A stretch of 28,772 bases of DNA from Clostridia bacterium (GTDB lineage: Bacteria; Bacillota; Clostridia; Oscillospirales; CAG-272): assembly GCA_017648425.1 (NCBI GenBank), contig JAGCJD010000174.1, forward strand, positions 1 through 28,772, written 5' to 3'. The notes below the pieces were generated by a model that saw only the letters and a program-made list of their open reading frames with translations, did no database searches and was not told the origin of the DNA. Every line of letters begins with the position of its first letter. Within the stretch, counting starts at the first letter, position 1. Of this stretch, positions 6,835 through 28,772 are shown in pieces. Position numbers and translations under genes: made by a program.

Positions 6835-7138
6835 GCAAGAAAGACAGACACAGCTGACGCTCGAGCTTGGAAGCGGAGTACAGCTCTCAGAGGCTCAGCT
6901 TTGCAGTGTCGTGTCGCTTGTGGTGGGGCTTGAATACCGCAAGGAAAGGCACGGCGCGTGGGCGCTTGACCAAGAGCATTCGAGCAAAAAGTATTTAAGG
7001 TGGAGGTGCAGCGCCTGCGGACACTGGCAGTCGTCAAGGCGTAACGATAAGAGTGAGCAGATATTTTACATGAATTACTGTCCATTCTGTGGTTCGCAGA
7101 TGGACAAGCCCGCAAGGGAGAGGGCTGAGCAGATATGA
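6818..7138 (+). CDS. Phage zinc-ribbon protein
   Basis: RHGAW...RCSACG...NYCPFCGSQMD (two CxxC pairs); AAGGAG RBS. Confidence 0.8.
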   Translation: MQNRRKQERQTQLTLELGSGVQLSEAQLCSVVSLVVGLEYRKERHGAWALDQEHSSKKYLRWRCSACGHWQSSRRNDKSEQIFYMNYCPFCGSQMDKPARERAEQI

Positions 7139-16663: not shown

Positions 16664-18790
16664 ATGATATTGCCTGAGCTTCCCATACCAAACCAGACCA
16701 AGGAGATAATACAGACCTTTGGCGGATATAATCACAATATAAGAATAGCGGACAATGAATTTTTTAACATGAGGAATTTATCTGTTATCGGATATCCGAC
16801 ATTAAGTCCAAGGCAAAAGAGAGGGATAGTAAAGAGCCTTCCCGACTGTAATGGATTACTCTCAAAGGACAAGTTGGCGTATATAAGCGGCAATAAGCTT
16901 TACTATGGAGAACAAGAGTTCGCGCTCAACGAAGGCATAACAGAGGAGCGTCAGATAGTTTCAATGGGCGCTTATATCCTTGTGTTTCCTGACGAATATT
17001 ATGTAAACACAAAGGATACGACCGATCATGGAAGCATAAGCGGAGGGTATTACGAGTTAAATACAGAGAACGAGGATCTTTCGTTTTATTTATCAACGGT
17101 TGAGGGAAACGAGGTTCACCCCCTTTACATAACGAAAAAAGGTTCTGCGTCACAGAGCGACGAGGTTGCCGTATGGGAGCTTTTGCAAAGCTTAAAAAAC
17201 AATCGCAAAATATCCACGACAGATAACTGTTATGTTGCAATAAGGAGTGACGGTAACTCGCCTATCGAGGTAACGCTTCCGTTTGACAATACGAATGGCT
17301 CGAACAAGTCGAATTATGTATATATACAAGACCAATCGGTAGCCCAGATAAAGGAAAAAAATATGCAAGGGACAGTTTTTACGCCACTGAAAAGCGGTAT
17401 AACAACGGTCGAGGTAGGACTTGGCTCGGGAAGCGCGACATATTCACGGTATTATTACATAATCGTAAAGGACACGGCAGATCCCACCGATGGAGAATAT
17501 TGGCTTCAAACGGACGGAGATAGCGAGGTCGGTCAGCTCTATGTAGCATCAGGCGGAAGATGGGAGGCAATAAAAAGCTGTATAAAGGCAAAAAGCGGAA
17601 TGCCTTTTGCTAAGGAGGCGTTTGCAAGGCTGAAACAACAAAAAACTTGCAGACTGAGGATTTCAAGCGACAAAGAGGCTTTGCAATATATAACAAAGAA
17701 ATATTCGGAATTGAATGCCTTTGATCCTATAAGCTGTGGGGAAGACTATTTCTTGCTTGAAGGAAGCTTAAATAATTGCTCGTTTGTTGCAATGCCAAGC
17801 AACACCAAAATAGAACTAAGCTTAGATCTTCCCGAAATGGATTTTGTTATGGAAAGCGGAAACCGCTTGTGGGGCTGTAAATACGGGCTGAACAAGGAGG
17901 GGGATTTTTTGAACGAGATATATGCCTCCGAGCTTGGGAATTTCTTTTCGTGGTATTCATTCAAGGGCATATCCACCGATAGCTACGCGGCATCGGTAGG
18001 TACGGACGGAGTGTTTACCGGCGCGGTGAATTACAAAGGTAAGCCGATATTCTTTAAAGAGAATTGCACGCATTCCATATACGGCTCGTATCCCTCCAAT
18101 TTTCAAATAAGCACCGAAGCGGGTATTGGCTTGGAGGAAGGCTCGGCAAGGAGCTTGTGTATTGTCAACAACGCATTGTACTATAAGGCAACGGACGGTG
18201 TGTACAGATACGATGGCGCATCGTATGATAAGCTCTCATTTGCTCTCGGAGATGTTTCTTACAGCAATGCATCAGGGGGGAGCATTGACAATAAGTATTA
18301 TATAGCAATGACGAGCGAGGAGGGAAAAAGAGAGCTGTTCGTATATGATATATCCAAGGGCTTGTGGCACAAGGAGGACGAAGTACAAGCATATTACTTT
18401 GCCCGTCACAAAAACGACCTTTACTTTTACGACAACAGCTCTAAGTATTTGTATACGGTAAAGGCGTCAGAGGGAGAAGCGGAGAGCGATCCTATCACAT
18501 GGGAAGCGGAAACAGGGCCTATCGGCTACAACACGATAGATGCAAAATATCTTGACAAGATACAGCTCCGAATATCTCTGCCTGTCGGAAGCGCTGTCAG
18601 ATTTTTTATAGAATATGACACGGACGGATATTTTGAGTATTTTGGAAATATCACGGGAAAATCAAGTCAGGCGTTCACTCTGCCGTTGTTTCCGCGCAGA
18701 TGCGATCATTTCAGACTGAGACTCAACGGAGAGGGCGAGTGTAAGATATTCAGCCTTATAAAGGTCATAGAGGACGGAGGCGAGCTGTAA
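16664..18790 (+). CDS. Tail/stabilisation (nozzle-like, beta-propeller) protein of podovirus type
   Basis: Start at ATG 16664 after AAGGAGG; beta-rich with repeated Y..DG and WH..D motifs; C-terminal RRCDHFRLRLNGEG. Confidence 0.72.
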   Translation: MILPELPIPNQTKEIIQTFGGYNHNIRIADNEFFNMRNLSVIGYPTLSPRQKRGIVKSLPDCNGLLSKDKLAYISGNKLYYGEQEFALNEGITEERQIVSMGAYILVFPDEYYVNTKDTTDHGSISGGYYELNTENEDLSFYLSTVEGNEVHPLYITKKGSASQSDEVAVWELLQSLKNNRKISTTDNCYVAIRSDGNSPIEVTLPFDNTNGSNKSNYVYIQDQSVAQIKEKNMQGTVFTPLKSGITTVEVGLGSGSATYSRYYYIIVKDTADPTDGEYWLQTDGDSEVGQLYVASGGRWEAIKSCIKAKSGMPFAKEAFARLKQQKTCRLRISSDKEALQYITKKYSELNAFDPISCGEDYFLLEGSLNNCSFVAMPSNTKIELSLDLPEMDFVMESGNRLWGCKYGLNKEGDFLNEIYASELGNFFSWYSFKGISTDSYAASVGTDGVFTGAVNYKGKPIFFKENCTHSIYGSYPSNFQISTEAGIGLEEGSARSLCIVNNALYYKATDGVYRYDGASYDKLSFALGDVSYSNASGGSIDNKYYIAMTSEEGKRELFVYDISKGLWHKEDEVQAYYFARHKNDLYFYDNSSKYLYTVKASEGEAESDPITWEAETGPIGYNTIDAKYLDKIQLRISLPVGSAVRFFIEYDTDGYFEYFGNITGKSSQAFTLPLFPRRCDHFRLRLNGEGECKIFSLIKVIEDGGEL

Positions 18791-18800
18791 TGAGCATACC
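18741..18800 (+). repeat. attL core of nested element (60 bp)
   Basis: gtaagatattcagccttataaaggtcatagaggacggaggcgagctgtaatgagcatacc identical to 24093-24152. Confidence 0.95.
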
Positions 18801-18945
18801 GTTTACGGCAAGCATAAATCCCAAGGGGAAAAACACCGACGAGGTACAGCGCGACTTGATAAGGCAGTTGCAGATACAGAACAGAGAACTGAAAATTATC
18901 ATTGAGGATCTGTACAAGCAAATAAACAAAATCGGAGAGGGCTGA
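18790..18945 (+). CDS. 51-aa virion-module protein, element-borne allele
   Basis: MSIPFTASINPKGKNTDEVQRDLIRQLQIQNRELKIIIEDLYKQINKIGEG; 37/51 aa identical to 24142-24297. Confidence 0.85.
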   Translation: MSIPFTASINPKGKNTDEVQRDLIRQLQIQNRELKIIIEDLYKQINKIGEG

Positions 18946-18964
18946 AAGGCGATTTTTGACGTTT

Positions 18965-18992
18965 TACCCCTTATTTTACCCCTTATAGAATT
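18965..18992. repeat. Putative integrase arm-type sites (left copy)
   Basis: taccccttattttaccccttatagaatt, 27/28 identical to 23956-23983. Confidence 0.75.
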
Positions 18993-19063
18993 TTACCGGA
19001 TTGTTTTTAACCCCCGAAAAAAGGGTAAATTTTGACCGATTTTCGGGCGGTGATTTTGACAGC

Positions 19064-19095
19064 AAAAAAGAGAGGCTTTTTGACCTCTCTTTTTT
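19064..19095. terminator. Bidirectional terminator at element left end
   Basis: aaaaaagagagg-ctttttga-cctctctttttt. Confidence 0.8.
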
Positions 19096-19124
19096 GCCTT
19101 TCCGAACGTATTCGTACAGAGGGC

Positions 19125-20288
19125 TTACGCTTTCATTTTCTCGTAGTAATTTTGCAAACGGTCTGCGCTGTCCTTTTTCATCTTTTCGGACACGTGAGCG
19201 TAAACGTTAAGAGTGAACGCGGCTGTGGCGTGACCGAGCGCTTCCTGTACGGTTTTCGGATTGTCCCCTTCTTGCAAAGCTGTGACGGCGTATGTGTGGC
19301 GCAGATCGTGAAATCTGAAATCGGGACATCCTATTTTTGTGCACACTCTTTTGAAATATGTGTGGAGCATATTCTCGTTGATGTATTTTCCGTCAGCACG
19401 CGTGAATACGAGATTCCAATCGTTTTTCCACCCCAAGCCTACCGCCAAGTGGTTTTTAAATTGCTCTTGGCGAACTCTTTGCAAAATATCCATGACGAAC
19501 GGCGCAGGCGTAAGCGTTCGTGATTTGTTGCTTTTTGGTGTTGAAATATACGGTTGCTCTCCGCGTTGCAAAGTGGTTTGTAATTGTTGCTTGACCGTAA
19601 CAGTTCCGTTCTTGAAATCAACCGCGTCCCACGGCAGTCCCAGCACCTCGCCTCTGCGCATTCCTGTGAATAGAGTGACCAAGAATATGTCTTTGTACGG
19701 AGACGGAAGCGGCTCATCCTCAACGGCTTGCAGAAAGTTGCGAAGTTCTTCTTCCGTGAGCGGGTGCATTTCTTTTTTTTCTTTTGCGGGGAGCTTGCAA
19801 GCGCTTGACGGATTTACGCTTATGTATTTTAACTCTACTGCTTGTTCAAGGGAATAGTGGAGTGTTGCGTGACAGTGTCGTGTTGTTGTCGCTGATAACC
19901 TTTTATTGAGCTGATTGTAAAAGGCTTGTATGTGCGTCGGGGTGAGCGCTTGAAGCTTGATATAGCCTAACTGTGGCTTTATGTAGCGCTCTATATATGC
20001 TTTTTGATTTACGTAAGTACTGCGCTTCACGGTCTGCTTGTAGTATTCCTCTAACCAGATGTCCACCCACTGCCCGACGGTCAGCCTGCTCGGCTCAACG
20101 AACGTTCCCTCGTCTCCCGACTTCTGCGCTTGCCTCATTTGCTTCAAGACTTCCTTTTGCGTGTCGGCGTAAAAGGAACGTCGCTTGCCGGCTATCGTAC
20201 AGCGAGCTTCCCACCGACCGTCCTCACGTTGGCGGACGGAACCGCCGCCCTTTGCATTTCTCTTGTCCTGATGAATAGTGTCTGCCAT
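19125..20288 (-). CDS. Tyrosine recombinase/integrase (ICEBs1/Tn916-like)
   Basis: N-terminal RQREDGRWEAR arm-binding domain; catalytic TGMRRGE, FHDLRH, LGH, TLNVYAH. Confidence 0.96.
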   Translation of the reverse strand: MADTIHQDKRNAKGGGSVRQREDGRWEARCTIAGKRRSFYADTQKEVLKQMRQAQKSGDEGTFVEPSRLTVGQWVDIWLEEYYKQTVKRSTYVNQKAYIERYIKPQLGYIKLQALTPTHIQAFYNQLNKRLSATTTRHCHATLHYSLEQAVELKYISVNPSSACKLPAKEKKEMHPLTEEELRNFLQAVEDEPLPSPYKDIFLVTLFTGMRRGEVLGLPWDAVDFKNGTVTVKQQLQTTLQRGEQPYISTPKSNKSRTLTPAPFVMDILQRVRQEQFKNHLAVGLGWKNDWNLVFTRADGKYINENMLHTYFKRVCTKIGCPDFRFHDLRHTYAVTALQEGDNPKTVQEALGHATAAFTLNVYAHVSEKMKKDSADRLQNYYEKMKA

Positions 20289-20291
20289 TTC

Positions 20292-21038
20292 TTAAATCTC
20301 CTTTTCTGTTTGTGTGTTGAATGTTTTGTCGAGCTTGTCCATAAACCACTTTTCGTAGTATTCGCCTCTCTCACGCTCCGCATCGGCGCGCTCGGACGTG
20401 CGCTCGTTCGCGTCCTGTATAGCCCATAGGCGTATCGTTACGTAGTGATCGTCGTATTTGTACCCCTTGCTTTTGAGCTTCGCGGAGAAGTTTTCGATAA
20501 GAGTGTCGGCTTTGTCCCCAAACTGCTTTTTCAGATCCTCATGCTCCGCTTCGGTCAGATAGACGTTCTTAAATTCTCCGTATGCCTTTTTATCGGGAGA
20601 GGGCGTTCTCGCGCGTGTACGCGCATTTATACTCTCTCCCTCGTAGAGGGAAGAGTGTAAATAGTTATCTGTATTCTGTTTACCGTTATCTGTATTCTGT
20701 TTACCGTTATCTGTATTCTGTATTCCGTATTCTGTAGCTGACTTTTGCTGTGGCTCTGTTTCCTCTTGCTGTGCTTTGCTGTTTTTTGCCGTAGCAAAAC
20801 CGCCTTGCTGTCCTGCTCTGCGCCGAAGCTCCGAAATCTCCTCACCACGTTTGATTTGGTGGAACATTATGGAGACCACGACCCGGAGCGTACCGTCCAC
20901 GTTATCGATAGGGTTACTCCCGTGACGGTGGTAATCTGATATAGCCTTGACTACCTTCCATGCGTCTGCGCCGTCGAGCTGGTCAAGGTCGTCTATCCAA
21001 TCGTAGAACAGATAAAATGCTTTTTCGTTGTCCTTCAT
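20292..21038 (-). CDS. Replication initiator / replisome organiser (DUF6291-like N-terminus)
   Basis: KAFYLFYDW...; internal iteron-like 21-bp repeats; C-terminal YGEFKNVYLTEAE...YDDHYVTIRLWA. Confidence 0.78.
   Translation of the reverse strand: MKDNEKAFYLFYDWIDDLDQLDGADAWKVVKAISDYHRHGSNPIDNVDGTLRVVVSIMFHQIKRGEEISELRRRAGQQGGFATAKNSKAQQEETEPQQKSATEYGIQNTDNGKQNTDNGKQNTDNYLHSSLYEGESINARTRARTPSPDKKAYGEFKNVYLTEAEHEDLKKQFGDKADTLIENFSAKLKSKGYKYDDHYVTIRLWAIQDANERTSERADAERERGEYYEKWFMDKLDKTFNTQTEKEI
20664..20737. repeat. Iteron-like tandem repeats (putative origin) inside initiator gene
   Basis: gttatctgtattctgtttacc x2 plus one degenerate copy; core gtattctgt occurs five times. Confidence 0.8.
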
Positions 21039-21244
21039 ACCGCCGCTGCGCTTGCCTCCGCTTCAAGCCATTTGCAAAGACTATCGACGGGTATCACTAT
21101 GCGTCGCTCCGATACTCGGACGGCGGGGAAGCCCCTGCGCTTTATAAGCTCGTAAGCTACGGGTTTGGATACTCCAAGTACTTTTGCGAGTTCTGCAACG
21201 TCAAGCACGAGCTTGTCGGTTTGGGTAAGTATTGCTGTTGTCAT
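21035..21244 (-). CDS. Excisionase-like HTH (HTH_17 type)
   Basis: VLDVAELAKVLGVSKPVAYELIKRRGFPAVRVSERRIVIP...L.KWL. Confidence 0.88.
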   Translation of the reverse strand: MTTAILTQTDKLVLDVAELAKVLGVSKPVAYELIKRRGFPAVRVSERRIVIPVDSLCKWLEAEASAAAV

Positions 21245-21375
21245 TTGTTTATCCTCTCTTTCGTGTTTTTGATTTTGTGTGACAGCTCCTCGGCTGTCGT
21301 TGCGGTATTTACTGCCTCTGCCGTTTCCCTCAAGCGGACGGTGAATGCGAGAACGTAAGCAATCAGAGTCCTCAT
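21241..21375 (-). CDS. Small hypothetical protein (44 aa)
   Basis: MRTLIAYVLAFTVRLRETAE...; ATGA overlaps with both neighbours. Confidence 0.55.
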   Translation of the reverse strand: MRTLIAYVLAFTVRLRETAEAVNTATTAEELSHKIKNTKERINK

Positions 21376-21686
21376 TCAGTGCCTCTTTCCGGCTTTTCCA
21401 TCTGCGCCCCGCAGAATGGGCAGTAGTTCATGTAGAAGATCTTATCGGACATTCCGCCCTTGGTTGCGGACTGCCAGTGTTCGCACTCTGAACAGATCCA
21501 TCTGACGAATTTTTTGCTCTCGAAGCTCTCATCGGGAAGCCACACGCCGTGGCGCTCTTTTCTGTATTCCTCAGCTGCGAGTGTGTAAGCGAGTTTTTTT
21601 GCCCGGCTTTTGCTCAGCTCGGGTGCCTCAAGCAAAAATTCCGTAAGCTCTTTGGTGCGCTCTCGTAGTCTTTTATCGGTTATCAT
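21372..21686 (-). CDS. Zinc-ribbon protein, homologue of prophage 6818-7138
   Basis: 39/62 identical residues over the C-terminal region by manual alignment. Confidence 0.85.
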   Translation of the reverse strand: MITDKRLRERTKELTEFLLEAPELSKSRAKKLAYTLAAEEYRKERHGVWLPDESFESKKFVRWICSECEHWQSATKGGMSDKIFYMNYCPFCGAQMEKPERGTE

Positions 21687-21689
21687 GCT

Positions 21690-22082
21690 TCATTCCTCCG
21701 TGATTTTTGGATTAAGTATTGCCTGGGCGAAAATATCCGCCTGGCGTTCGACGTGCCGACCGTGTCTGATACGCTGAAGCTCAAGGTATCGCTCAAAGCG
21801 TTCGTGCTCCTCTCTGTGCTTTAGGAAGTAGTGCCCCAGCTCATGAGCCACGGTAAACCGCTTTTGAGAGTGCGTTCTCGTATCGTCGTATACGATTATG
21901 CTCTTATCGTTATGGCAAAATATCCTGCCGTACTCTGTTGGGCATAGCAATCGCACGTCGCTGTTTTTGTATACTTTTATGCCCTCGCCCCGGGCGAGTT
22001 CCAGAACGTCGAACGGTACCGTATCGATACCGTGCTCGCGCAGGACCGAGAGTGCATATTCGGGTATATCTTTGTTTCTCAC
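21690..22082 (-). CDS. ImmA/IrrE-family metallopeptidase (short form)
   Basis: RFTVAHELGH, ERQADIFA; shares EGIKV.KNS.V.LL with 5109-5708. Confidence 0.88.
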   Translation of the reverse strand: MRNKDIPEYALSVLREHGIDTVPFDVLELARGEGIKVYKNSDVRLLCPTEYGRIFCHNDKSIIVYDDTRTHSQKRFTVAHELGHYFLKHREEHERFERYLELQRIRHGRHVERQADIFAQAILNPKITEE

Positions 22083-23125: not shown

Positions 23126-23254
23126 ATTATAGCATATCGTACCCGATATGTCAAGAGACTTTTTGGAAAATATCGGGTACAATATTTCACAAACATTTTT
23201 GAAAATTTTTGTGCAATTTGTATATTGTCCCCGATATGTGGTTTGTGGTATAAT
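23126..23254. promoter_or_regulatory. Divergent promoters with three 16-bp operators (element switch)
   Basis: Leftward TTGACA-17-TATAAT (23154-23126); rightward extended -10 TGGTATAAT (23246-23254); operators atatcgtacccgatat 23134-23149, atatcgggtacaatat 23170-23185, atattgtccccgatat 23222-23237. Confidence 0.85.
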
Positions 23255-23279
23255 ATTTTCGATAGAGAGGGGGGATATT

Positions 23280-23486
23280 ATGCCAGCATCAAAAGCAAAC
23301 CAAAAAGCGGTCGCAAAATACATGAAAGCAAACTATGACGATATTAAGGTCAGAGCCCCAAAGGGAAAGCGAGACCTGATACAAGCTCATGCAAAGTTAC
23401 AGAATGAAAGTACAAATGCGTTTATCAACCGCGCGATAGACGAGACTATCGAGAGGGACAATGTAAAAGAAAAGGGAGAGGGCTGA
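23280..23486 (+). CDS. Ribbon-helix-helix (Arc-like) repressor
   Basis: Start MPASKANQKAVAKY at 23280; YDDIKVRAPKGKRDLIQAHA...STNAFINRAIDE. Confidence 0.75.
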   Translation: MPASKANQKAVAKYMKANYDDIKVRAPKGKRDLIQAHAKLQNESTNAFINRAIDETIERDNVKEKGEG

Positions 23487-23955
23487 CAGCTCTCTCCGTT
23501 TTTGGTTGGCGAGTAAAAGGTGTTTTAATGCCCCTCACGCGCGCGAGGATTGCGTGTACGCGCGTTAAATAGGTAGGGTGGACTACTACACTCTCGCGCA
23601 TACGCAGGACAGAGGGGTTTTTGAGGGTATCGTGTGCGTACGTGCGTATATGGGTGTGTGTACATCCGTAACGAGAGGGCGAAAGAGGGCACACCGGGAA
23701 CGTTCGGAACGTGAGCTGCGCCATCGATACCGATTTATGCCCGGCATATGGCGACCGTCGCGCCGATGGAATGTGAGGTAACTTTCCGAGAGATCTTCGA
23801 GAGATCTTTTTTGCGTTCAATATCTCGGTACGGAGATGGAAAAGTGAACCCCGAAAAGCACGTCGCGATCGAGAGGGATTTTTGCCCCGAAAAATACCCC
23901 GAAAAAGAGGGCAAAAAAGGGTGAAAAACGGGCGTGATTTTTTACCCCCGATTTC

Positions 23956-23983
23956 TACCCCTTATTTTACCCCTTACAGAATT
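23956..23983. repeat. Putative integrase arm-type sites (right copy)
   Basis: taccccttattttaccccttacagaatt. Confidence 0.75.
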
Positions 23984-24092
23984 GCATTAGATTGATTTTA
24001 ACGCCTTTTCGGCGGTTTTTGAAAATCGAAACGCTTTATTTGGATTGAAAAGATTGCCTTAAATTGGTCTTGATTGAACGTGGGAATTGAAA

Positions 24093-24152
24093 GTAAGATA
24101 TTCAGCCTTATAAAGGTCATAGAGGACGGAGGCGAGCTGTAATGAGCATACC
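24093..24152 (+). repeat. attR core of nested element (60 bp)
   Basis: Identical to 18741-18800. Confidence 0.95.
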
Positions 24153-24297
24153 CTTTACCGCAGAAATCAATCCAAAAGGAATAACAGCCGATGAGGTTCA
24201 GAGAGATTTGATACGACAGCTTAGAACGCAGAACAAGGAGCTTGCAGTAATTATAAAGGATCTATATGAGCAGATAGAAAAGATAAAGGGAGGGTAA
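24142..24297 (+). CDS. 51-aa virion-module protein, probable native phage allele
   Basis: MSIPFTAEINPKGITADEVQRDLIRQLRTQNKELAVIIKDLYEQIEKIKGG; followed by phage terminator and late promoter. Confidence 0.85.
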   Translation: MSIPFTAEINPKGITADEVQRDLIRQLRTQNKELAVIIKDLYEQIEKIKGG

Positions 24298-24321
24298 TGG
24301 TGCGCCATTACCCTCCCTTTT
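24285..24321 (+). terminator. Rho-independent terminator
   Basis: 16-bp perfect stem aaagggagggtaatgg-tgcg-ccattaccctcccttt. Confidence 0.8.
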
Positions 24322-24333
24322 GTATGCTCGATG

Positions 24334-24367
24334 GGGCTACCATGAGCGTGTTTTTTTGTGGTATTAT
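24334..24367 (+). promoter_or_regulatory. Putative phage late promoter 3
   Basis: GGGCTACCA-19 nt-TATTAT (TGn-extended) upstream of the ejection-protein genes. Confidence 0.7.
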
Positions 24368-24398
24368 ATAGTAAAACACAAAAGAAAGGGGCTTGAAT

Positions 24399-25289
24399 AT
24401 GGGCTACAAATATCTGCGCGGACAAAGCTATCAAAGCAGAAACAAGGACAAAATAGAAAAACTGACAAAGGAATATACGGATAGGAAATTTAATTACGAT
24501 CCCGACACTGATGCGGCTTATCAGGAGTATGCAAGAATGATGAAGGAAAGCGGTCAAAGAGCTATGGAGGATACAGTGGGAAAGGCATCATCTCTTACGG
24601 GTGGATATGCCAACTCGTATGCGAGCACGGTTGGACAGCAGACTTATAACGATTACATGAAGGAGGCGGCTGCCGCGCATGTCGATTATTATGATAGAGC
24701 GCTTGCTCGTTTTACGCAAGAGGGAAGCGTATTGCAGGATAGGATAAATAGTCTTAAAGCGCAGGAGAGCAGTGACAGAGCGGCGTGGGAGGAGGATTAT
24801 CTTGCGGATCTTGAAAAAATGACGATTACAAACGATATTGATGGCCTTGCTTCAATACATGGCGTGACAACAGATGAGTATCAAAGATATCTTGACAATG
24901 AAGCAAAGAGATCGCTTGTCGCTCCTACACAAGAGATTATTGACAAAGCGGTGTCAGAGTATATGAGAAAAGGATATTTTGAAAAGGAGGTCGCAGACGA
25001 AAGCGAGCTTATTGAGAATATAATCGAGAAATATGTTCAAATGGGATATGATCCCGATGCCCTTACAACGATGCTTGTCGAGGCAAGGAGCGCATACGAA
25101 TATGTTAAGGATCGAGATTGGACAAAAGTTTCGGGCAAAGGAAAAAGCGCGCGCTTCCAAGACCAATTCGGAAACTTGTTCTTTTATGACGAGCTGGAAA
25201 ATTGGACTAAATCTCAAAGCGGAGAGGAAGAGTGGAATATACTCAAAAATAAGCTCAAAGGTATCAAAAAAGGCTCCCAGGAGGATTAA
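24399..25289 (+). CDS. Probable internal virion / DNA-ejection protein
   Basis: Likely start ATG 24399; FNYDPDTDAAYQEY...AMEDT.G.AS.LTGGYANSYA.TVGQQ.YN.YM, helical; position after tail gene. Confidence 0.7.
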   Translation: MGYKYLRGQSYQSRNKDKIEKLTKEYTDRKFNYDPDTDAAYQEYARMMKESGQRAMEDTVGKASSLTGGYANSYASTVGQQTYNDYMKEAAAAHVDYYDRALARFTQEGSVLQDRINSLKAQESSDRAAWEEDYLADLEKMTITNDIDGLASIHGVTTDEYQRYLDNEAKRSLVAPTQEIIDKAVSEYMRKGYFEKEVADESELIENIIEKYVQMGYDPDALTTMLVEARSAYEYVKDRDWTKVSGKGKSARFQDQFGNLFFYDELENWTKSQSGEEEWNILKNKLKGIKKGSQED

Positions 25290-25292
25290 AAA

Positions 25293-28200
25293 ATGGATAA
25301 GGAAACTGCAAAAAGACTTTCTCGGCGTTCAACAGAGCAAGCGCTTGCCAAAAGAGCTCAAAAGGCGGCAAGGCTGGAACAAGCAAAGCTTGAAAAGCAA
25401 ATAAATGAGTGGGAGCTGAACGAAGCCGAAAAAAAACGCTTGGAAGGCTACGACATAAATGCAGCAGAGGCAGAGCTTACAAGGATTACCAACAGCCCCG
25501 ATTATTGGGCGAACATAATAGGGGAGAATACGGCGTTTGATCAAGCTGAGGCGTTGCGCTCGGATATAGATAAGGCAAAGAAAATACAGGAAAGAGCAAA
25601 GGTTTATGACACGGCGTATAACGCCAAGAATGAGTTGCTCAACACCCGAATTGTTGACAACAAGACAAGGATAGAAGAAAATTCAATAATCGACAATATC
25701 ATAAAGAATACCGATAAAGCGTCCCTTGACAGCTATGTTATTCATAACGGAGCGCTTCCCGAAAGCATTGATGCGGATCTTGAAGATATCCGTCAGGAAA
25801 TAATGAACGAAATGTTTTCCAAAAAGGCTTATGAATATGGCAAGGAATTTCCTGTTATCGGAACGGTTGCCAGCGTTGCTTCAAACTTAATGGGCGGCGC
25901 TTTGGCGTATAGCACGATTTCAAAAGACGGCAGAAAATTAAAGGTGAAGAGAAATACTTTATCCGATATTGCAAGTAATCTTCGGGCGGGAGCTTCCTCT
26001 GACATGAGCGATACGGGAGAGTTCCTTTACAATACGGCAGTATCTATGACAGAGTCGGTGCTTGCCGCCCTTATGTCGGGTAGCGGAGGAATGACCTTGC
26101 TCGGAATGTCCGCAGGAACGCAGACGGCAAACGATGTTCTGTCAAGAGGGGGCACAAGCGAGCAAGCGTTAGTGGGCGGAATTGCCGCAGGAGTTTTTGA
26201 GGCTTTTTTTGAAAAGTTTTCTATTGGCGCGTTAAAGTCAATGCAGCTTGACGAAATTACAACCTCGTGGAAGGGCTTTATGAAAAATTTGGGCAAGCAA
26301 ACGCTTACAAATGCTACCGAGGAGGGCGCGACCGAGATAGCTAATACCGTGTTTGATACAATCGCCCTCGGAGATATATCAAATTGGTCGCTTATGATAA
26401 ACGAATATGTAAATCAGGGCATGACTTTGGAGCAAGCAAGAAAAAAGGCGGCGAGCGCGTTTGGTATGCAGACGATTGAGGCTATGGCGTCAGGCGCAAT
26501 CATGGGCTCTGCGTTCGGTCTTGGCGGAGCTGCTGTCGGAGGAATTAAAAGAGCTAAGAACGGCAAAGCCATTATAAACGAAAGCACAAAAGCAACGCTT
26601 GATGATTTGATAGCGGCAGGAGAGGAAATATTCGTTGGCGACGAATACAAGAAAGAGCGCGAGCTTTTAAATGCTATAAAGAAAAATAAGAGCAAGAACG
26701 ATCTTGCTCAAAGGAACAGAGTTGCAAAGCTTGACGAGATAATAACAAAAATCGCGCAGGAGAAAGCAAAAAAAGCTCCTTCATGGGAGGGGCAAAAAAA
26801 GAATATTGTAAACGATGCGCTTGATGATTTGTCGGGAACTCTGCGTACGGCGCGCTCAGAGGCTAAAAACGCAAGGATAGGCAAGGACATAACCTATACC
26901 GATATGCCGCGTATAGTTGATTTTAAGGGAAGCAGTGGCGATGCTGTAATTATAATGCGCTCAAACGGCACGGTGGCAAAGCTTTCCGATATGTCATTTG
27001 AGGACGGCTCGCTGCTTGAAGCATACTTTCTTGCTACAAAAACAGGCTCGGTGGAGAACGCGAACAGGTTTATCGAGCAATACAGATTGTTTAACAAAGG
27101 AATATCCATTGAGCCTTTTTGGTTAGCGTGGATGGGCGTGCAGAACTACGGACAGACAGTAAATTCCGAGAATGCTCTTGACAACGCCCTCAAACGCTAT
27201 AAAAAATATGGCGTTCCCGAAACGGCATTAATGGCGGCTTTTCTGTCGGGCAGAAATTTACGCAAGAGCGCATCGGAAAGCGCGAAAGCGGCGCAACGAA
27301 AATATGAAAAGGCGTGGAAAGAAGCAGGTGGCAAGCTGAGGGACGCAAGGTTTGACGATAGCGCCATAAATGTCAGCAGTCTTACCGAGGACCAAAAGGA
27401 ATATTTGTGCTTCTTAAAAGCATTTTCACGAGTGTTGGGCGCAAATATTGAGGTGTTTGCTTCCGAAAAAGGAAGCAGACGAGAAAACGGCTCTTACAGT
27501 CGAACTACGAACACCTTGCGTATTGATATTAATGCAGGTATTTCAAATGAAGCAAATTATGAGGCGACAAGGAGCTGTATTATAAATACGCTTTCTCATG
27601 AAACGGTGCACAATATGCGAGAGGTAGCGCCCGAGGAGTATGAGGCGCTGAGAGATTTTGTAGTAGAGCTTTTGCAGGAGGACGAGCATTACGATTTTGA
27701 CAAAGCAATAGAAACGGAAATTGAAAGAGCGGCGCAAAATAAAAAAGGCCTCACAAGAGAGGACGCCGTTGAGGAAATAGTGGCGCGTGCATGTGAGAAC
27801 TGTCTTGGCTCATCGGAAACGCTGAAAGACCTTTTGACAGCGCTTTACATTGAGGATAAAAGGGCGGATAACAGCTTTGTAAGAGCTGTGCGAGCGTTTT
27901 TGACAAGGCTTAAAAGGTTCTTTGAAAACATATCAAAGCAGAGGGCAAAGACGCAAGAGGCAGATATAATCGCTGGAAAGGGAAAAAATATAATCTCTGA
28001 AATACAAAAGCGCTTTGATACGGCTCTCCTTGCTATGCGTAAGGGTAATACCGAGAGAAACGGAATAACAAATAAAGATGCCGCGCCGAGTGTAGGGGCT
28101 GATGCCGACAAGCAGAATAGTGATGTCAAATATCAAATGCGCGAAGAAAATTCAAAGGATACTCTTTACATTTACAAGGAAAAGGAGTATAATGATTTTG

Positions 28201-28772
28201 GTTGGGCGGAAGCCAATGGCTTTTTGAGTGCGGGGGAGAACGCTGACTACCTGGCAAAATTTGCAATGCTGAAAGCTCGGAAGGTGAGCTTCCCAAAGAC
28301 CAAACGCAGCGAGTATATGATAGCGGTCAGCGACATTTACGATTACGAATCGGAGGGCGTTGAAAATGTTATCGTTTATGCCAAGGGGACTATCGAGCAC
28401 CCAATTGTTACAAAGGTCATTAGGATAGAGATATTTGAGGAAACAGAAAAACTTGACAAGAAAAGGAGAGAGTTTTATGATATTGGACGGAGAGGCTTAC
28501 AGCCGAAGATTGGAGAGCTTTGCAGATTCTACTATGGAGCTGACGGAAGATCTTATGGCGTATACAAAAGAGATAGCCTTCAAAATGCTGGATCTGACGG
28601 CGGACGACAGTCTGACGGAGGAGCAGTTGGTGGAAAAGCTGCTCGAGCTGAAGGAATTGGCAGATCAGGCGGAGATATAATATATTATCACGATGTTGAT
28701 GATGTAAAAATAAATTCCGAAAGTTCCTTTGACATTACCGCAAATGAGGTTGAGACGATACGGAGCATAGGC
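25293..28772 (+). CDS. Giant polyvalent virion protein (partial, at least 1160 aa) with MPTase-like zinc metallopeptidase domain
   Basis: My translation finds no stop from ATG 25293 to the window end (absent from the track for that reason); Gly/Ala-rich hydrophobic segment, then RENGSY...LRIDINA...LSHETVH (27597-27611)...EEIVARACE, a KYQMR linker and a further globular domain. Confidence 0.85.
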   Translation, partial: MDKETAKRLSRRSTEQALAKRAQKAARLEQAKLEKQINEWELNEAEKKRLEGYDINAAEAELTRITNSPDYWANIIGENTAFDQAEALRSDIDKAKKIQERAKVYDTAYNAKNELLNTRIVDNKTRIEENSIIDNIIKNTDKASLDSYVIHNGALPESIDADLEDIRQEIMNEMFSKKAYEYGKEFPVIGTVASVASNLMGGALAYSTISKDGRKLKVKRNTLSDIASNLRAGASSDMSDTGEFLYNTAVSMTESVLAALMSGSGGMTLLGMSAGTQTANDVLSRGGTSEQALVGGIAAGVFEAFFEKFSIGALKSMQLDEITTSWKGFMKNLGKQTLTNATEEGATEIANTVFDTIALGDISNWSLMINEYVNQGMTLEQARKKAASAFGMQTIEAMASGAIMGSAFGLGGAAVGGIKRAKNGKAIINESTKATLDDLIAAGEEIFVGDEYKKERELLNAIKKNKSKNDLAQRNRVAKLDEIITKIAQEKAKKAPSWEGQKKNIVNDALDDLSGTLRTARSEAKNARIGKDITYTDMPRIVDFKGSSGDAVIIMRSNGTVAKLSDMSFEDGSLLEAYFLATKTGSVENANRFIEQYRLFNKGISIEPFWLAWMGVQNYGQTVNSENALDNALKRYKKYGVPETALMAAFLSGRNLRKSASESAKAAQRKYEKAWKEAGGKLRDARFDDSAINVSSLTEDQKEYLCFLKAFSRVLGANIEVFASEKGSRRENGSYSRTTNTLRIDINAGISNEANYEATRSCIINTLSHETVHNMREVAPEEYEALRDFVVELLQEDEHYDFDKAIETEIERAAQNKKGLTREDAVEEIVARACENCLGSSETLKDLLTALYIEDKRADNSFVRAVRAFLTRLKRFFENISKQRAKTQEADIIAGKGKNIISEIQKRFDTALLAMRKGNTERNGITNKDAAPSVGADADKQNSDVKYQMREENSKDTLYIYKEKEYNDFGWAEANGFLSAGENADYLAKFAMLKARKVSFPKTKRSEYMIAVSDIYDYESEGVENVIVYAKGTIEHPIVTKVIRIEIFEETEKLDKKRREFYDIGRRGLQPKIGELCRFYYGADGRSYGVYKRDSLQNAGSDGGRQSDGGAVGGKAARAEGIGRSGGDIIYYHDVDDVKINSESSFDITANEVETIRSIG
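28477..28680 (+). CDS. Nested out-of-frame 67-aa acidic helical protein (candidate immunity protein)
   Basis: AGGAGA RBS 7 nt before ATG 28477; +1 frame inside the giant ORF; MILDGEAYSRRLESFADSTMELTEDLMAYTKEIAFKMLDL...LVEKLLELKELADQAEI. Confidence 0.6.
   Translation: MILDGEAYSRRLESFADSTMELTEDLMAYTKEIAFKMLDLTADDSLTEEQLVEKLLELKELADQAEI

Follow-up and report, generated by a model that had tools for sequence, protein, structure and literature searches.

The stretch analyzed here (the window, 28,772 bp) is the whole of contig JAGCJD010000174.1 from a metagenome-assembled genome (MAG) of a Clostridia bacterium that measures 1.37 Mb, is 76% complete, and consists of 298 contigs. Relatives are MAGs of gut Clostridia, Eubacteriales, and Oscillospiraceae. 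In the window, which stems from a gut Clostridia MAG of the Oscillospirales type, lies a prophage that is temperate and podovirus-like, and among the late genes of this phage lies a 5,352-bp element with a tyrosine integrase, bracketed by two copies of a 51-codon gene. Outside the element, the prophage encodes a serine recombinase, an ImmA/XRE repressor pair, Rep, the terminase subunits TerS and TerL, a P22/SU10-type portal, a Prp protease, a scaffold, and a capsid. The capsid gene is followed by genes for an 82-aa protein, a 122-aa protein, a 708-aa protein that is predicted to form the tail nozzle (16664 to 18790, plus strand), the 51-aa protein, a 298-aa protein, and a giant polyvalent protein. 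The last two (24393 to 28772, plus strand) are virion/ejection-type genes; in the longer contig L049, the giant protein comprises 2,671 aa.

The two 51-codon open reading frames (ORFs) are both intact and lie on the plus strand at 18790 to 18945 (left copy) and 24142 to 24297 (right copy). They share a perfect, uninterrupted 60-bp match with sharp edges on both sides, at 18741 to 18800 and 24093 to 24152, which contains the 3'-most 49 bp of the 708-aa gene, the overlapping stop and start codons, and the initial 11 bp of the small ORF. The left block is that of attL, with the crossover site inside it, and the right block is that of attR. Similarity is nil on the left side of the block; on its right side, a nucleotide identity of approximately 64% extends up to the stop codons. 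The two proteins are identical at 37 of 51 positions (BLASTP E value, 2e-26), with differences at residues 8, 14-16, 28-29, 32, 35-36, 39, 43, 46, and 49-50. Over the full length of the ORFs, 53 of 156 nucleotides differ, and the identity after the block equals 63.8%. Past the block, 33 residues are conserved, 21 of which are specified by a different codon, and the synonymous sites are therefore saturated while the protein has been kept. Because of this saturation (pS of 0.96 to 0.99 over 29 to 31 sites), the Nei-Gojobori dS is undefined and codon counts were used instead. The remeasured coordinates, block, and identity agree with an earlier description of this locus that was made from the DNA letters (the sequence-only reading).

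The ends of the element are marked by the motif TACCCCTTA, which occurs only four times in the window, as a co-oriented doublet just inside each end. The P' arm (18962 to 18992, plus strand; motif copies at 18965 and 18977) lies 17 bp past the stop codon of the left ORF and forms a direct repeat with 23953 to 24005. The P arm (23953 to 23983, plus strand; motif copies at 23956 and 23968) lies approximately 110 bp before the right block. Arm-type sites thus flank the core on both sides, and one att site is adjoined by the gene of a 387-aa tyrosine integrase (19125 to 20288, minus strand; PF00589, PF14659, PHROG 1). Between the left ORF and the 3' end of the integrase gene, an inverted repeat forms a hairpin with a perfect 14-bp stem (19062 to 19097). 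The 76-nt stretch around it has a folding energy of -26.3 kcal/mol (z score, -3.7), marking it as a candidate two-way terminator brought by the element, although the T-tail terminator rule does not flag it. No structural, terminase, or packaging genes were detected among the element ORFs by PHROG and Pfam family searches.

Behind the right copy lie a hairpin with a perfect stem of 16 bp (24285 to 24320; z score, -4.8), the putative native terminator, and the late-promoter-like 9-mer GGGCTACCA (24334 to 24342, plus strand). This 9-mer has three occurrences in the window (9727, 13875, and 24334), compared to 0.09 expected by chance, and each of them precedes a virion gene block. Both the hairpin and the motif are also present 3' of the small gene in L178, a close relative of the host phage in which the site is uninterrupted. 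In L178, the nozzle gene is followed by a 51-aa gene (family member P0038), the same hairpin and promoter-like motif, a 296-aa gene, and the giant gene; the distant prophage L026 shows the same gene order. The L178 copy of the motif carries one change (GGGACTACCA).

The flanks of L178 match both outer sides of the composite exactly where the repeat ends, and a comparison of its small gene with the two copies of the window shows which of them is native. The L178 allele shares 46 of 51 aa and 88.7% of its nucleotides with the right copy, and 21% of the conserved residues use another codon. These values resemble those of the nozzle gene, which is 87.5% identical between the window and L178 at the nucleotide level, with another codon at 23% of the conserved residues. 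In contrast, the left copy shares only 63 to 64% of its nucleotides with either the right copy or the L178 allele, and 59 to 64% of the conserved residues have another codon. Since the right copy is approximately 89% identical to L178, like the rest of the phage, it is the native orthologue, which now lies 5,352 bp further downstream. A tree of 52 family members pairs the right allele with P0038 and places the left allele as the sister of this pair (support, 100/93), on a branch that is not lengthened (0.28 versus 0.25). The left copy is therefore an older offshoot of the same phage lineage, carried in the attP site of the element: its first 11 bases lie in the block, and the remainder is the element's own allele. 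The reverse assignment, with a native left copy and a foreign right copy, is ruled out by the empty-site phage L178. The sequence-only reading had considered the right copy probably native, noting the terminator and late promoter behind it, and had attributed the left copy to the element; both views are borne out, with 88.7% identity of the L178 allele to the right copy versus 63% to the left copy.

Both junctions recur in four other metagenome assemblies at 99.8 to 100% identity, and a single scaffold from another sample (L044/L048) spans the whole composite. The contig is therefore not chimeric, and the two-copy arrangement is real. Two copies could also come about with no integration event, either as an assembly chimera of two phage variants or through phage-phage recombination that captured an integrase module. 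The fragmentation of the source MAG and the breaks inside the element in several other assemblies would suit such an origin. The assembly chimera is ruled out by the recurrence of the junctions in other assemblies, and an origin without integration is extremely improbable as a whole. It is contradicted by the sharp repeat edges, by the co-oriented doubled arm motifs, which are shared with relatives of the same architecture whose integrases target tRNA-Ser genes, and by the exact match of the L178 empty site to both outer flanks at the repeat ends.

We consider the locus to reflect target repair of the ordinary type that is seen in icd and tRNA genes and that has here taken place in a prophage late gene, and we assign this interpretation a probability of roughly 0.75. 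It draws on the anatomy of the locus, the empty site in a relative, the identity of the native copy, the long-term conservation of the element's copy at the protein level, and the usual tRNA-Ser target of related integrases. By tyrosine-integrase recombination, the element would have inserted where the nozzle gene meets the 51-aa gene. Its attP site would consist of the P arm with the doubled motif, approximately 110 bp, the block of 60 bp that matches the phage site perfectly, and an element-borne gene body, that is, the other 145 bp of a full-length 51-codon gene in an old, diverged version, followed by 17 bp, the P' arm, the hairpin, and the integrase gene. A crossover inside the block would leave the nozzle gene intact and rebuild the small gene by joining the ribosome-binding site and first codons of the phage to the gene body of the element. 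The target restored in this way is full length and in frame, with 51 codons like the native one, and the left ORF is coupled to the nozzle gene through an ATGA-type overlap. Translational coupling would thus be retained in the rebuilt gene, and the operon would end at the element's hairpin.

At the far end, the native gene body would receive the element's copy of the block and come to lie 5.35 kb away, behind the terminator of an RHH repressor gene (23475 to 23497). No plus-strand promoter is predicted ahead of the native body, which is weak evidence that the native copy is cut off. With the same reservation on promoters, the proposal of the sequence-only reading that integration places the element's allele at the end of the late operon, here the nozzle operon, and isolates the native one is sustained. 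The left copy is then probably the expressed one, and with the element inserted, the composite prophage would still have its full set of virion genes. The element presumably excises as well.

The function of the target gene is approached through its neighbor. The 708-aa protein, a member of PHROG 511 ("internal virion protein"), is predicted to be a podovirus tail nozzle because of its fold matches; sequence families gave none, as no significant Pfam family was found for the nozzle family and no match for the protein in a PDB sequence search. Its AlphaFold model (19-sequence alignment; pLDDT, 74) matches the nozzle/hub proteins T7 gp12, SU10, and P22 gp10, with Foldseek E values of 1e-14 to 1e-10 at a probability of 1.0 against podovirus nozzles, and an Atlas structure search agrees. 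The sequence-only reading had spoken of a tail protein, which holds for the predicted structure and can be narrowed down to the nozzle. Of 301 genomes sampled from this bacterial family, 90 contain homologues of the nozzle, and such nozzle-bearing prophages are therefore common there. A 12-kb megablast query had no match among the INPHARED phages, and neither the nozzle protein nor the integrase had a close match when each was scanned singly against IMG/VR. An IMG/VR search with a degenerate core pattern and the arm motif gave no relevant match, the locus L179 being an unrelated chance match.

A profile search placed the 51-aa protein in a family of approximately 50 sequence clusters, with proteins of roughly 50 aa that combine an N-terminal IPFTAEINPKG-type motif with a heptad-repeat helix. 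In every family context that was read, the gene lies directly 3' of the nozzle gene and before that of a protein of approximately 300 aa, often with overlapping stop and start codons. No Pfam or PHROG family matches the protein, and a word-based homologue search with the left allele as a query found only the allele itself. A profile search against the PDB returned only generic leucine-zipper matches (best E value, 0.0035) and detected no homology to gp26. From the gene position and the coiled-coil-like profile, the 51-aa protein may be a small nozzle plug or needle. The claim of the sequence-only reading that it is a virion gene is plausible in view of the predicted nozzle fold upstream and the constant place after the nozzle gene in relatives.

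The left allele retains all invariant and near-invariant columns of the family as well as the hydrophobic heptad positions, and its 14 differences lie at columns that vary among phages, except for E8S and T15N. With the conserved columns kept, the left allele looks as target repair predicts and gives no sign of a changed function. It could also be proposed that the left ORF is a decaying relic or a spacer between the attP core and the arm, open by chance, and that the phage uses the right copy or neither. The protein is indeed tiny and lacks family matches, and the present interpretation is built from DNA contigs. Nevertheless, at 36% nucleotide divergence the frame, length, start codon, ribosome-binding site, and 70% of the residues are kept while synonymous positions are saturated, and every family-invariant column is retained. 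Together with the conservation of the family over approximately 50 clusters, in a constant operon position and often with overlapping stop and start codons, this makes a relic very unlikely.

The integrase connects the element to a group of small elements in gut Clostridia. Integrases that are 49 to 61% identical to that of the window occur in many gut Clostridia MAGs (including L123-L136 and L039-L041), and their loci share the neighbors RHH, p91, Xis, and a Rep-type gene, as well as the same doubled arm motif beside the integrase gene. Unlike the element studied here, nearly all of the related loci with enough flank lie at the 3' end of tRNA-Ser(gct/gga), at a distance of 90 to 140 bp, and a search with a hidden Markov model of the 51-aa family found a homologue in 0 of 110 loci around related integrases. 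A "satellite clade" of alleles therefore does not exist to compare with. The nearest relatives found for the window integrase are Clostridia tRNA-Ser targeters, and in the integrase tree it falls in a clade with three others (L038, L122, and L133; SH-aLRT, 98) that is nested among them. The window has a tRNA-Ser(gct) of its own on the same contig (1052 to 1143), which is unoccupied; neither an integrase remnant nor the arm motif was found near it.

The clade with the window integrase also contains that of a sister element, L038 (6572 to 11670 of G204:C100). This element measures 4,971 bp and is flanked by a perfect 128-bp block, which replaces the final 41 codons of a gene encoding more than 1,291 aa with a segment identical to the native one. 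The target gene of L038 belongs to PHROG 22978 and is collinear with the C-terminal 700 residues of the giant protein of the host phage (E value, 5e-18). On at least two occasions, this integrase subclade has thus moved from tRNA-Ser to the 3' end of a late gene in this type of phage, and in both moves the element carries a replacement segment.

Further observations stand beside these results. The contig of the related element L133 (1 to 7529 of JAZNEQ010000076.1) opens with the 3' end of an integrase gene and closes with an integrase gene whose 3' end is missing, and it has two sets of arm motifs approximately 250 bp apart directly after the integrase. Its appearance is that of a circular or tandem form with an intact attP site. 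Compared to the window, both L133 and L122 have their arm motifs in the opposite orientation with respect to the integrase. In run X3, which stems from another study, fragments of the window's element match at 99% or more, and the only contig there with the nozzle gene differs at 35 of 431 positions (17801 to 18231). In that run, where no contig bridges a junction, the same element may thus reside in a phage variant that is more diverged.

The sequence-only reading had gone beyond simple target repair, suggesting that the element may replace a structural component of its helper to bias assembly or packaging, or may simply keep the helper viable. In such a functional allele swap, the element's 51-aa version would alter the virion, for example as a nozzle plug or needle, to aid packaging or spread of the element, or it would handicap the phage. 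The 14 of 51 residues that differ include surface charge swaps on the predicted coiled coil (E39K, K43E, and N46E), and S8, in the conserved N-terminal motif, is absent from 50 other family members. Moreover, the gene directly follows the nozzle gene, where P22 has its needle, and the native copy appears cut off from promoters. However, the invariant residues and hydrophobic heptad positions are all kept, and the differences fall almost only at variable columns and match ordinary variation between phages. The phylogeny points the same way, as the left allele is sister to the phage lineage's own allele and its branch shows no acceleration. In addition, the replacement brought by the sister element L038 is identical, which makes plain repair the habit of the family, and neither a packaging-related gene nor pac-like DNA shared with the phage was found in the element, whose only DNA in common with the phage is limited to a Zn-ribbon gene. 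A functional swap is unlikely on these grounds, and a role of the element in biasing packaging is not upheld by any packaging-hijack feature in it. The terms satellite and helper accordingly serve as labels here.

A more specific version holds that the 51-aa protein seals the nozzle and that the element has evolved its own version, which changes the particles of the composite. Such an element-specified tail tip is equally doubtful. If it were true, the tip would change stability, the triggering of DNA ejection, or host recognition in favor of the element, and a mobile element would be editing the virion of its carrier through allele replacement at integration. Beyond repair, there is no support for a role of the left copy.

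Several points weigh against ordinary target repair in the form proposed. A tyrosine recombinase requires a shorter match than the 60-bp block, and L178 differs from this block at 6 of 60 positions, so the perfect block is not explained by general conservation. It may have been kept by selection for a match to the site, or by homologous exchange near the crossover in earlier cycles of integration and excision. The four additional assemblies represent one strain (99.8 to 100% identity) and are not independent samples, and pairwise divergence cannot separate selection within the element from divergence in an earlier phage donor. Low-depth public Logan contigs over 17.8 to 25.2 kb gave no joints of an excised circle or an empty site, and since these contigs break at the repeats, they carry no information on excision, and their depth differences are not interpretable. 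The element may be a true satellite or, equally well, cargo that replicates and is packaged within the phage genome.

The closest described system is that of the helper-embedded phage-inducible chromosomal islands (HE-PICIs), in which no replacement sequence is present in attP and the late gene is delayed until excision (Tommasini, Mageeney and Williams, 2023; PMC10111431). The Clostridial element falls outside the HE-PICI family as defined. Both are small tyrosine-integrase elements nested in a late gene region of a prophage, here the junction of the nozzle and 51-aa genes, and both have a doubled arm-type motif on either side of the attP center (TACCCCTTA in the Clostridial element versus TGTATTGC in HE-PICIs). 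Each also has an integrase lineage that repeatedly enters prophage late-gene sites, which in the present case are this junction and, for L038, the end of the giant gene. Whereas HE-PICIs disrupt the late gene, the Clostridial element carries a whole replacement gene. The integrase, AlpA, and primase genes of HE-PICIs are co-oriented with the late gene; in contrast, the integrase, Xis, and Rep genes of the Clostridial element lie on the minus strand, opposed to the plus-strand late operon and insulated from it by the hairpin. Finally, the hosts of HE-PICIs are lambdoid prophages of Gram-negative bacteria, and these islands carry AlpA, a primase, and captured late genes, while the Clostridial element has a podovirus-type prophage as its host, a Rep with iterons, and no late genes. 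It resembles a PICI-like satellite in that no virion and packaging genes of its own are found among its ORFs.

Replacement sequences in attP are a known principle for islands and phages in icd or tRNA genes (PMC10111431). As in these cases, attP holds the 3' part of the target, so that the recombinant gene would stay functional, an extended identity block surrounds the crossover, and a displaced native fragment lies at the far end. The present case differs in that the target is a virion operon gene of another mobile element and not a housekeeping gene, and in that a complete small gene is supplied, which outside the block is far more diverged (64% nucleotide identity) than usual. The layout of the late genes also recalls P22, with its gp10 hub and gp26 needle, and T7 gp12: a nozzle/hub fold is predicted upstream, and a small gene occupies the next slot before ejection-type genes, like that of gp26. 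As in gp26, a conserved N-terminal peptide precedes a heptad-repeat helix in the 51-aa protein, but gp26 measures 233 aa instead of 51 aa and sequence similarity is not detectable.

To our knowledge, the only elements described so far as nested in prophage late genes are those of Gram-negative lambdoid prophages, and these break the gene on entry. The element from gut Clostridia has the opposite design, bringing a spare copy of the phage gene that it cuts together with a terminator-like hairpin, and particle production by the composite prophage should remain possible without loss of the element. Repair as a principle is already known from icd and tRNA genes; its location in a prophage late gene is unusual, and a new mechanism is not established. 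This raises the question of small integrative elements traveling as cargo within a phage genome versus separately packaged satellites. It also bears on the way in which integrases of one lineage exchange a tRNA gene for phage genes as their target, with two sites in the same phage type. In addition, a predicted fold is now assigned to a nozzle family that is common in this bacterial family, and the 51-aa family is placed directly after the nozzle gene in the operon.

The remaining genes of the element lie between the integrase gene and the P arm. On the minus strand, the integrase gene is preceded by genes for a Rep-like protein (DUF6291, replisome-organizer-like; 20292 to 21038), whose gene contains three 21-bp iterons (20664 to 20736), and a 69-aa excisionase-type helix-turn-helix protein (21035 to 21244; PHROG 66, HTH_17). 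Family matches further identify a Zn-ribbon protein (21372 to 21686) and an ImmA-like M78 peptidase (21690 to 22082), also on the minus strand. On the plus strand, an RHH/Arc-like repressor gene with its predicted terminator spans 23148 to 23497 (called as 68 aa from 23280) and faces a consensus leftward promoter (23154 to 23126). Several further small ORFs have no assigned function. The Zn-ribbon protein and the ImmA-like peptidase both have homologues among the phage early genes. For the Zn-ribbon gene, the sole DNA-level similarity of the element to the phage outside the att region, positions 21385 to 21569 are 68.5% identical over 200 bp to an early gene at 6932 to 7116, and the ImmA-like protein resembles the ImmA of the phage. 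The Rep-like protein measures 241 aa in one metagenome version (L045) compared to 248 aa in the window, with one repeat unit fewer, and the origin-like iteron array therefore differs in copy number between samples.

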